A stretch of DNA of 41,055 nucleotides from a virus (Duplodnaviria > Heunggongvirae > Uroviricota > Caudoviricetes): the IMG/VR virus record IMGVR_UViG_2529293142_000020; one strand, given 5' to 3'. How positions within the stretch are numbered: the first letter of the stretch is position 1; every line of letters begins with the position of its first letter. The position numbers and the translations under genes are program-made. The notes beneath the pieces were generated by a model. The model was given only the letters and a program-made list of their open reading frames with translations, had not been told where the DNA came from and ran no database searches. Below are positions 6,272 to 7,977 of this stretch, piece after piece.

Positions 6272-6553
6272 TTACCTAGGAAATTGGCGTCTGGCGTGGG
6301 CGACGCTCACAATTTCAATACTTGAAGTGGCCACACGGTACAGAATGATATAGTTAGGGTGAGCTACAATCTCGCGCAACCCAGACACTCTGTCGCTTGA
6401 TGGGTATAAGTACGGATGTTCGGATAAAGCTAAAACACATGTCTCAATGCGAATTTTTAGTCTACGTGCGGCATGGAGATTTTCTTTTGCAATATAGGCT
6501 ACGATCTGACGTAAATCATCACGCGCAGAAGGTAGCCATAAGATGGGCAGCAT
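6272..6553 (-). CDS. parE2: ParE/RelE-family toxin (ParE2-like)
   Basis: 93-aa protein with ParE-like signature (WLPSARDDLRQIVAYIAKEN ... YIILYRV ... IEIVSVAHARR); start overlaps the stop of the upstream antitoxin. Confidence 0.85.
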   Translation of the reverse strand: MLPILWLPSARDDLRQIVAYIAKENLHAARRLKIRIETCVLALSEHPYLYPSSDRVSGLREIVAHPNYIILYRVATSSIEIVSVAHARRQFPR

Positions 6554-6744
6554 CACACACTCCCGTTAGTCGCAGAAATTTGGGCAATGAGATTTTCTAT
6601 TTCTGCCATTGCCTCATCATGGGGAATTGCAGGGCGCGGATCTGCAAGACTTGCAGCTACTTTTGTACGCAGCCATTCGTTGTAGCTGTTTTCTTGCTCA
6701 ATGGTTTCAAATTCAGAAACTATAGGCGAAAGAGCAGTGTTCAT
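6553..6744 (-). CDS. paaA2: Antitoxin (PaaA2-like) partnered with ParE2
   Basis: 63-aa ORF immediately upstream of and overlapping the toxin; sequence recalled as PaaA2-like. Confidence 0.7.
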   Translation of the reverse strand: MNTALSPIVSEFETIEQENSYNEWLRTKVAASLADPRPAIPHDEAMAEIENLIAQISATNGSV

Positions 6745-6774
6745 AACATATCTCCGTTTGGCTTATGATGGCGA

Positions 6775-7182
6775 CTACGCTCGGTGCCCTTTCTGGGCCG
6801 CGAGCCATCTTGCAACAGTGCGATCCATTGACTCTTTTTTGTCTTTCATGTCTTTAAGCATTTGTTCCTGATCTTCCTCTGGAAATGCTCCGAATGTTTG
6901 AAGCAGTTCCCTTTGTCTGGGGCCTATTTTCATGGTATCTGGCACCACAACTTGCTCTTCTTCGCTTGGCGGTAACATAAACCAATACGGGGGAAAGCCC
7001 GTTACGTCTGAAAGTTTATCAAGATTAGCAGTCGATGGACTTGTAATGCCATGAACCCACTTTTGGACTGACTGCTGGGCAACACCTATCCTGCGGGCTA
7101 GCTCTGCCTGCTTAAGTCCTGTTTTTTCCAGCACCAATTTTATTCGGTACGTAGTTATTTCAAGGGTGGTCATTCGCTTCAT
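6775..7182 (-). CDS. paaR2: HTH (XRE-family) repressor, PaaR2-like; occupies the cI position
   Basis: 135-aa protein with HTH LKQAELARRIGVAQQSVQKW; first gene of the operon with paaA2-parE2; divergent from a Cro-like gene. Confidence 0.75.
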   Translation of the reverse strand: MKRMTTLEITTYRIKLVLEKTGLKQAELARRIGVAQQSVQKWVHGITSPSTANLDKLSDVTGFPPYWFMLPPSEEEQVVVPDTMKIGPRQRELLQTFGAFPEEDQEQMLKDMKDKKESMDRTVARWLAAQKGHRA

Positions 7183-7195
7183 GCATTCATTTTAC

Positions 7196-7267
7196 ATAAA
7201 AAAAGTGTAACTAGCACAATCAGCTTAAAAGTGTTGATAATATAACTTTAAAAGTGTATAAATCATG
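7196..7267. promoter_or_regulatory. Divergent promoter/operator region with three direct repeats of AAAAGTGT(A/T)
   Basis: Repeats at 7201, 7228 and 7250 between the divergently transcribed paaR2 and ydaS-like genes. Confidence 0.5.
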
Positions 7268-7297
7268 GCAATTCACGGGAGTTAACAATATGCATGA

Positions 7298-7555
7298 ATG
7301 TTTAAAAAGAAAATTCACAAAAGAGGGTTATCCCAAGCAGGCGTTGCTCGCTTGATTGGATTGCCGCAACAGGTTGTATCTCGATGGGCTAATGGTCATC
7401 AGGTTCCTGCGTCAAGGGTTCTACAACTGTGTGAGATTATGCAGTGGGAGGTTACTCCTCACGAACTCCGCCCTGATATTTACCCCAATCCAACCGACGG
7501 CTTGCCTTCTGAGTTTAAGGCTAACACACAACCAGCTGCGGGAGTTGATTCATGA
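7298..7555 (+). CDS. ydaS: Cro-like HTH protein (YdaS-like)
   Basis: 85-aa protein with HTH GLSQAGVARLIGLPQQVVSRWANG; divergent from the repressor. Confidence 0.65.
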   Translation: MFKKKIHKRGLSQAGVARLIGLPQQVVSRWANGHQVPASRVLQLCEIMQWEVTPHELRPDIYPNPTDGLPSEFKANTQPAAGVDS

Positions 7556-7977
7556 AAATCAAGCATGAACACATCCGCATGGCGATGAATGCCTGGGCGC
7601 ATCCGGACGGCGAAAAAGTACCGGCTGCGAAAATTACCAAAGCGTATTTCGAGCTGGGTATGACGTTCCCTGAACTGCATGACGACAGCAAACACAACGC
7701 GCTTTATCTCAATACCCAGAAAATTTTCCGCTGGGTAGAGAAAGACACCCCTGATGCAGTTGAAAAAATTCAGGCGTTGTTACCAGCGATCGAAAAGGCA
7801 ATGCCACCTTTGCTGGTGGCCAGAATGCGCAGCCACAGTTCAGCTTATTTTCGGGAGCTGGTGGAGACGCGGGAGCGACTGGTGAGAGACGCTGATGATT
7901 TTGTCGCAGTGGCAATCGCCGGTTTCAATCAGATGAACCGTGGTGGCCCGGCAGGAAATTCTGTGGCAGTACATTGA
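7552..7977 (+). CDS. ydaT: YdaT-like regulator (CII-analogue position)
   Basis: 141-aa ORF beginning MKIKHEHI, overlapping the ydaS-like stop (ATGA); position matches ydaS-ydaT of Rac/CP-933P-type prophages. Confidence 0.55.
   Translation: MKIKHEHIRMAMNAWAHPDGEKVPAAKITKAYFELGMTFPELHDDSKHNALYLNTQKIFRWVEKDTPDAVEKIQALLPAIEKAMPPLLVARMRSHSSAYFRELVETRERLVRDADDFVAVAIAGFNQMNRGGPAGNSVAVH

Follow-up and report, generated by a model that had tools for sequence, protein, structure and literature searches.

An immunity region of the PaaR-PaaA-ParE type, with a toxin-antitoxin pair downstream of its repressor gene, in a lambdoid prophage

The 41,055-nucleotide stretch of viral DNA analyzed here (the window; IMG/VR virus record IMGVR_UViG_2529293142_000020, Caudoviricetes) contains a compact, divergent set of five open reading frames (ORFs). 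Three of these, encoding a HTH (helix-turn-helix) repressor, an antitoxin and a ParE-family toxin, lie on the minus strand, and two, encoding a Cro/YdaS-like protein and YdaT, lie on the plus strand (Table 1). A kil gene and a recE-like gene lie left of the set, and an O-like replication gene to its right. An earlier note, made from the letters of the window, had described these ORFs and likened them to a prophage immunity switch. The five ORFs are present at the positions it gave, and their divergent layout, gene order and families are those of the published paaR-paaA-parE / ydaS-ydaT immunity region (Jurenas 2021, PMC8630535). The functional unit reaches further left than positions 6272-7977, to ~6163, which adds the left operators (OL), the leftward promoter PL and a terminator. 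The reference for this arrangement is prophage CP-933P of E. coli O157:H7, and the literature treats Sakai Sp12 as identical to it. We located ydaT-ydaS / paaR2-paaA2-parE2 in Sp12, where the intergenic region measures 97 bp, as published. According to an mBio paper, CP-933M has a homologous system, and the Sakai equivalent of that prophage, Sp4, shows the same five-gene layout (ECs_1067-1071).

Pfam assignments of all five proteins were judged against curated cut-offs, and all exceeded them. The toxin belongs to ParE_toxin (PF05016; 61.8 bits against a cut-off of 23, E=9e-17), and its top sequence match in the PDB is a ParE2 structure (5cw7_B, E=2e-38). It most likely starts at ATG 6553, which gives 93 amino acids (aa), rather than at GTG 6556. 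That ATG shares one base with the stop codon of the antitoxin gene (TGATG), and a GGGAG is found upstream of it. The antitoxin, of 63 aa and without a DNA-binding domain, is encoded directly upstream of the toxin gene; it matches PaaA2 (PF21217; 74.4 bits against 27, E=7e-21) and the RelB-family antitoxin equivalog NF050103 of NCBIfam (88.8 bits against 50), and its top PDB sequence match is the PaaA2 structure (3zbe, E=2e-22). The gap between the repressor and antitoxin genes is 30 nucleotides (nt). No terminator was called in this gap, the single minus-strand call that the scan made in the operon falling within the repressor gene. The terminator-like hairpin directly after parE folds as RNA at -12.7 kcal/mol (z = -2.5); 5 of 200 shuffled sequences did equally well. 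From this organization we infer that repressor, antitoxin and toxin are co-transcribed as one operon, and that the hairpin would terminate their transcript. At the sequence level, the locus thus has the components of a PaaR-PaaA-ParE three-component system: a toxin, an antitoxin and an HTH regulator as the first gene of the operon.

The 135-aa repressor has an N-terminal HTH (HTH_3; 49.5 bits against 23, E=4e-13) and the conserved PaaR C-terminal domain, and is without an S24 peptidase domain. Proteins annotated as "helix-turn-helix domain-containing" in E. coli, where they are of the same type, and in Salmonella are 95-99% identical to it; to the Gifsy-1/2 repressors it is 32% identical across 83% of its length. 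A PDB search with it returned generic HTH matches only, among them the 434 repressor; PaaR2 was not represented. The label "PaaR2 orthologue" was ruled out, as the HTH domain fails to align by BLASTP with PaaR2, the sequence of which was taken from the Sakai genome. That this gene is the sole repressor-like gene at the cI position, as had been claimed, was borne out by profile scans of ~35 other prophage ORFs, in which neither a second cI-like gene nor any further repressor with an HTH or S24 domain turned up. Near-identical repressors in RefSeq are annotated from the second ATG (132 aa). The conserved spacing of a -10 element, 6 nt and ATG (TAAAAT here and in Sp4, GATAAT in CP-933P) points to the first ATG, at 7182, as a putative leaderless start, and a leaderless start has been shown experimentally for the CP-933P repressor mRNA.

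The Cro-like protein matches YdaS_toxin (PF15943; 41.6 bits against 30, E=1e-10), and a PDB search with it returned generic phage HTH structures only. An A-run early in its gene (7304-7308) has five A. In three aligned relatives the run has six A, as it has in every one of the five complete E. coli genomes matching the stretch at 99% or better. Because of this, the usual start, ATG 7290, which has a GGGAG 8 nt upstream, is out of frame; its frame now stops after 21 codons, reading MHECLKRKFTKEGYPKQALLA. The sole remaining in-frame start is ATG 7298, which has no nearby ribosome-binding site and gives an 85-aa protein with an intact HTH. The 1-nt deletion may be real, in which case it would weaken the expression of Cro and YdaT, or it may have arisen in sequencing. 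A heptamer, T_TTA_AAA (7301-7307), was also noted in the 7290 frame, and a -1 slip on it would regenerate the 88-aa protein of the relatives. A weaker possibility is that low-level -1 slippage might restore the full-length Cro-like protein and so tune the switch.

YdaT matches YdaT_toxin (PF06254; 34.3 bits against 21), has as its top PDB matches 8bt1, a YdaT structure (E=1.5e-75), and 3c4r (E=1.4e-84), and falls in PHROG 163, annotated as "CII-like transcriptional activator". The solved ParE2, PaaA2 and YdaT structures matched by the window proteins all come from E. coli O157:H7. Its ATG overlaps the stop codon of the Cro-like gene (ATGA). The published YdaT operator, TTGATTN6AATCAA (PMC9986795), has one perfect match in the 41 kb against 0.11 expected, at the Cro/YdaT junction (OM), and this site is identical in Sp12, Sp4 and phage Tritos. 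To the left of OM, the only invariant bases in a stretch that has otherwise diverged among four immunity types are the T, A and T of a TAnnnT. This suggests that TAGCCT is the -10 element of a PRE-type promoter, which would put the YdaT site near position -42. At 7561-7580 there is an exact match to the primer with which PRE933P was cloned.

The promoters PR, PL and the repressor promoter PRM, like the terminator after parE, were assigned by eye, comparative conservation and folding. The 14-mer TAACTTTAAAAGTG, allowing at most one mismatch, occurs in 3 copies in the 41 kb against 0.00 expected, all of them at OL or at the right operators (OR), and AAAAGTGT was found at 7201, 7227 and 7250. The OL (6174-6210) and OR (7194-7256) sets mirror each other, as a 35-nt inverted repeat, 86% complementary, joins 6171-6205 to 7225-7259. 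Repeated operators at the divergent PR/PRM pair are thus accompanied by a second set at PL, past the toxin-antitoxin (TA) operon, as expected of a region of the CP-933P type. The OL/OR elements are kept in three same-type E. coli prophages, and other repeats stand in their place in Sp4, Sp12 and phage Evi; ATTTTACA and GTTGAT are invariant in the same-type relatives and Sp4. Long BLAST alignments over OL to Evi and Sp12 were considered as a sign of shared operators and rejected, as a multiple alignment showed that OL is type-specific and had merely been bridged. The position of PL agrees with the cloned PL933P fragment. Because no other repressor was found among the ORFs scanned, and because operators stand at PR and at the mirrored PL as well, we read the 6775-7182 protein as the phage immunity repressor, beyond a regulator of the TA pair only.

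Table 1. Features of the immunity region (window coordinates) and of the corresponding slot downstream of PaaR1-like repressors in other genera. Promoters, operators and the terminator are predicted.
Feature	Position	Strand	Details
PL, leftward promoter	6168-6196	-	-35 TTGACA 6196-6191, 17-nt spacer, -10 CATTCT 6173-6168; hexamers by eye
OL1	6174-6187		TAACTTTAAAAGTG
OL2	6197-6210		TAACTTTATAAGTG; 23 bp from OL1
Intrinsic-terminator-like hairpin	6219-6251	-	directly after parE, before PL; 11-bp stem, 5-nt loop, U-tract
parE-family toxin ORF	6272-6556	-	as in ORF list; GTG at 6556 gives 94 aa
Antitoxin ORF	6553-6744	-	63 aa
Repressor ORF	6775-7182	-	135 aa
PRM	7189-7194	-	-10 TAAAAT 7194-7189, 6 nt, then A of ATG 7182 (leaderless geometry)
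OR3	~7194-7207		weaker copy sharing AAAAGTGT; overlaps minus-strand TAAAAT
OR2	7220-7233		weaker copy sharing AAAAGTGT
PR, rightward promoter	7234-7262	+	-35 TTGATA 7234-7239, 17 nt, -10 TATAAA 7257-7262
OR1	7243-7256		within PR spacer
Cro/YdaS-like ORF	7298-7555	+	85 aa
Candidate PRE -10	7523-7518	-	TAGCCT; 21 nt beyond OM
YdaT operator OM	7545-7562		TTGATTCATGAAAATCAA; Cro/YdaT junction
YdaT ORF	7552-7977	+	141 aa
Pectobacterium slot (GCA_004137795.1)	L012 3159-4076		BstA_C-domain protein
Salmonella slot	L008 3077-3415		uncharacterised protein (112-133 aa class)
Raoultella slot	L010 3030-3431		uncharacterised protein (112-133 aa class)

Comparison with the two O157:H7 systems revealed which of them is the nearer relative. 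The earlier note had held that its match to CP-933P would fall if the minus-strand proteins bore no significant similarity to PaaR2, PaaA2 and ParE2; in alignments, all three do bear it. Every protein of the window is, however, nearer to the paralogue paaR1-paaA1-parE1 of CP-933M/Sp4. The toxin is 71% identical to that of Sp12/CP-933P and 87% identical to that of Sp4/CP-933M, and the corresponding values are 73% and 84% for the PaaA antitoxin and 82% and 87% for YdaT. The Cro-like proteins are 25% (E=0.002) and 51% identical, respectively. For the repressor, the similarity to Sp12/CP-933P is confined to the C-terminal 55 aa (residues 81-135; 51%), whereas the Sp4/CP-933M repressor is 64% identical over its full length. 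These higher identities to Sp4 indicate that the locus is a relative of paaR1-paaA1-parE1 rather than a "ParE2" system, so that the label "ParE2-type" is imprecise, although the architecture had been recognized correctly. Judged by sequence, the DNA-binding specificity would be that of neither CP-933P nor CP-933M: the operators differ from both types, and BLASTP found no counterpart of the HTH domain in PaaR2. In repressor HTH, Cro-like protein and operators alike, the locus departs from both O157:H7 systems, and it probably represents a third immunity specificity.

The borders of this specificity are sharp. Right of 7541, the window shares ~95% identity over ~2 kb with the heteroimmune phages Evi and Tritos, and the change from sequence that cannot be aligned to identical sequence falls precisely on the YdaT site; left of ~6162, the flank is 94% identical to Evi and 89% identical to Tritos. 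The sequence between, ~6163-7541, is an exchangeable immunity cassette. Between the same flanks, Evi (LR597642) carries a CP-933P-type repressor, an antitoxin and ParE2, and Tritos carries a different repressor/Cro pair and no TA pair, from which it follows that the TA pair moves within the exchangeable cassette. The ParE2 gene of Evi (L004 2782-3060), of the same type as that of CP-933P, is unannotated in the record. Among 5,426 complete E. coli genomes, the operator region was found in 9 and paaA-parE-like DNA in 841 (~15%); the whole 2.1-kb region was covered to at least 80% in 13 genomes. Of 50,697 phage records, Evi alone has a ParE1/2-like toxin, encoded by such paaA-parE-like DNA.

Overall, our data support that region ~6163-7977 is the immunity region, of the PaaR-PaaA-ParE type, of a lambdoid (Rac/CP-933-like) prophage, a reading to which we assign a probability of about 0.85. 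The mechanism that we propose for it is drawn from the sequence and from published work on CP-933P. In that prophage, the repressor and the Cro-like protein compete at shared operators, which leads to bistability, and bistable, heritable expression states have been shown; YdaT activates a PRE-type promoter; and transcription of the TA pair goes on in both states, neither of which releases the toxin (PMC8630535). The toxicity of ParE, its neutralization by PaaA and the lability of PaaA to proteases have been shown for the CP-933P homologue, as has the ability of the locus to stabilize an unstable plasmid by post-segregational killing. The sequence supports every structural prerequisite of that mechanism in the window.

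In a lysogen, a leaderless mRNA from PRM would encode first the repressor and then the antitoxin and toxin, whose genes appear to be translationally coupled, and would end at the hairpin after parE. The repressor, bound to OR and to the mirrored OL operators, would shut PR, and with it the Cro-like, YdaT and replication genes, as well as PL. The Cro-like protein would compete for the same operators, which would create a bistable switch, and YdaT, on the inverted repeat at the Cro/YdaT junction, would drive a leftward PRE-type transcript spanning repressor, antitoxin and toxin. As that transcript would also span the TA genes, the pair would be made in both states. ParE, likely a topoisomerase poison, would be held neutral by the labile PaaA and freed only on loss or replacement of the cassette. 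It is for this reason that we consider the TA pair most likely to be an addiction module for the immunity cassette, and not an effector of the lysis-lysogeny decision. The claim of the earlier note that a toxin is wired into the switch thus holds as regards transcription and should not be taken to mean killing controlled by the switch, given that in CP-933P the toxin is freed in neither state (PMC8630535).

Several points weigh against this reading. The promoters and operators were read from sequence, and a consensus promoter/terminator scan made no call at PR, PL, PRM or the parE terminator. The repressor, being without an S24 domain, has no obvious induction route; neither an antirepressor gene nor a LexA box (CTGT-N8-ACAG) was found in the window, and so there is no evident inducing signal. 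The lost start of the Cro-like gene may bias the switch toward the repressor state or lock it there. An insertion sequence (IS) that separates the early rightward operon from the gene for the late-gene activator Q may be polar on Q expression, and its place before Q may mean that the prophage is not inducible. Lastly, the 64% identity of the window and Sp4 repressors tempers the heteroimmunity predicted toward Sp4.

Lesions of this kind could also mean that the region is a decaying, locked remnant, with the Cro-like gene frameshifted, Q blocked by the IS and only the repressor and TA pair functional, as in the cryptic CP-933P. We view this as unlikely, although it is the most probable of the alternatives. 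The 1-nt deletion at 7304-7308 does end the ATG 7290 frame after 21 codons, but the in-frame ATG 7298 keeps the 85-aa protein with its HTH, and where one base differs within a homopolymer, sequencing may be at fault. An IS-type transposase gene (12457-13665) between hok and DUF968-RusA-Q and the lack of a DnaC/P-like gene after the O-like gene, unlike in close relatives, would also fit with decay. The other switch parts are nevertheless intact, as is every lysis, head and tail gene that was scanned.

A second alternative concerns the position of the TA pair. In other Enterobacterales, PaaR1-like repressors retain a divergent YdaS and YdaT, and the gene downstream of the repressor varies (Table 1), so that the slot held here by paaA-parE looks like a variable cargo position. 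BstA is an abortive-infection protein that is typically encoded downstream of prophage repressors, in the position of rexAB, and both systems occupy this place, described as a hotspot of mosaicism under the same promoter as the repressor (PMC8585504). The TA pair could, by analogy, be anti-phage cargo expressed by the lysogen for abortive infection or exclusion, with an infecting phage upsetting the antitoxin and freeing ParE. The variation of the slot by genus (Table 1), and Tritos, which has the same flanks and YdaT without a TA pair, are consistent with such a role. However, no PADLOC model matches the toxin or the antitoxin; among the literature matches listed for PaaA2 and abortive infection, neither term occurs in a title; and the activity demonstrated for the CP-933P homologue is plasmid stabilization. 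We consider this role for the TA pair doubtful, and it is a shade more doubtful that paaA-parE is one of several interchangeable cargoes in the slot and, beyond stabilizing the cassette, protects the lysogen from superinfecting phages by abortive infection. Finally, it is very improbable that the minus-strand trio is a self-contained three-component TA system, with its HTH protein regulating the TA pair only and immunity lying elsewhere: papers citing Hallez 2010 credit it with first describing paaR-paaA-parE loci as three-component TA systems, but the operator repeats also stand in the PR spacer, ahead of the Cro-like and YdaT genes, and in the mirrored leftward promoter past the TA operon, no other repressor was found among the ORFs scanned, and the CP-933P homologue has been shown to act as a cI analogue.

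As an immunity region of the PaaR-PaaA-ParE type, the locus is a real and already-described kind of arrangement, known from two E. coli O157:H7 prophages, and it is not new and adds no new mechanism. What it does indicate is that the design of a TA pair within an immunity region extends beyond those two cryptic prophages, to a family of exchangeable cassettes with at least three operator/repressor specificities that share the CII-like YdaT, the YdaT binding site and the repressor C-terminal domain. The sharp mosaic boundaries and the TA-less relative fit the published idea that the toxin penalizes replacement of the immunity region.

Additional features were noted in the rest of the prophage. 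On the plus strand, the gene for the 402-aa transposase of the IS (PHROG 2331, E=2e-200) has hok/mok (12147-12359) on one side and DUF968-RusA-Q on the other. Within 8043-9588, the O-like replication initiator gene (PHROG 3729) is followed directly by a DUF977/Ren-like gene; a shorter O-like/DUF977 arrangement of this kind is also present in Tritos and Evi, and in NZ_CP148445 and Sakai Sp4 a DnaC-like ydaV and a DUF1627 gene lie between the two. Between Q and a tRNA cluster, a 303-aa protein (16551-17462, minus strand) belongs to PHROG 3243 (unknown function) and matches the PADLOC candidate single-gene defence PDC-S42 (E=3e-53). It is followed by two small co-oriented ORFs (16302-16547 and 15972-16301, minus strand), and is likely a moron expressed in the lysogen. 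The tRNA cluster, downstream of Q, consists of three genes (17695-17935; Met-CAT, Lys-TTT and Arg-TCT). At the equivalent site in Sakai Sp4 and Sp12 the anticodons are different (Ile-CAT, Arg-TCG and Arg-TCT).

Of the known systems, Sp4/CP-933M has the gene order, the orientation, the YdaT site, the spacing of -10, 6 nt and ATG, and the PR -35 region GTTGAT in a form identical to those of the window. It differs in that its operators are of the ACAATAAAAAACTGT type and form an inverted pair, whereas those of the window are of the TAACTTTAAAAGTG type and form direct repeats, and the recognition-helix residues of the two repressors are unlike (VAQQSVQKWVHG against VTQQTVQQWVSG). Based on these differences, immunity probably differs from that of Sp4. 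CP-933P/Sp12, whose immunity region is the experimentally characterized reference (PMC8630535, PMC9986795), resembles the window in its five-gene architecture, its position from kil/exonuclease to the O-like gene, its leaderless geometry, its OL/OR sets and its YdaT OM site. In contrast, its repressor HTH domain is unrelated in sequence, its operators are of the GTTTAGTAA type, and its intergenic region is 97 bp, compared to 115 bp in the window.

More distant parallels exist with lambda and with the Gifsy prophages. The short repressors of Gifsy-1 and Gifsy-2 are similar in size to that of the window and likewise have no S24 domain. The Gifsy repressors are inactivated by LexA-controlled antirepressors, whereas the window shows no antirepressor gene and no CTGT-N8-ACAG box. 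The organization of lambda is similar in having a leaderless repressor gene with downstream cargo expressed in the lysogen (cI-rexA-rexB), divergent promoters that flank an OR of three sites, an OL that mirrors it, Cro as a competitor and, where cro meets cII, a site for an activator of the CII type, all within an exchangeable cassette bounded by conserved sequence. The similarity does not extend to the proteins, none of which is homologous in sequence to CI, Cro or CII; the window repressor is without a RecA-cleavable S24 domain, and the cargo that follows it is a ParE toxin-antitoxin pair, not RexAB.

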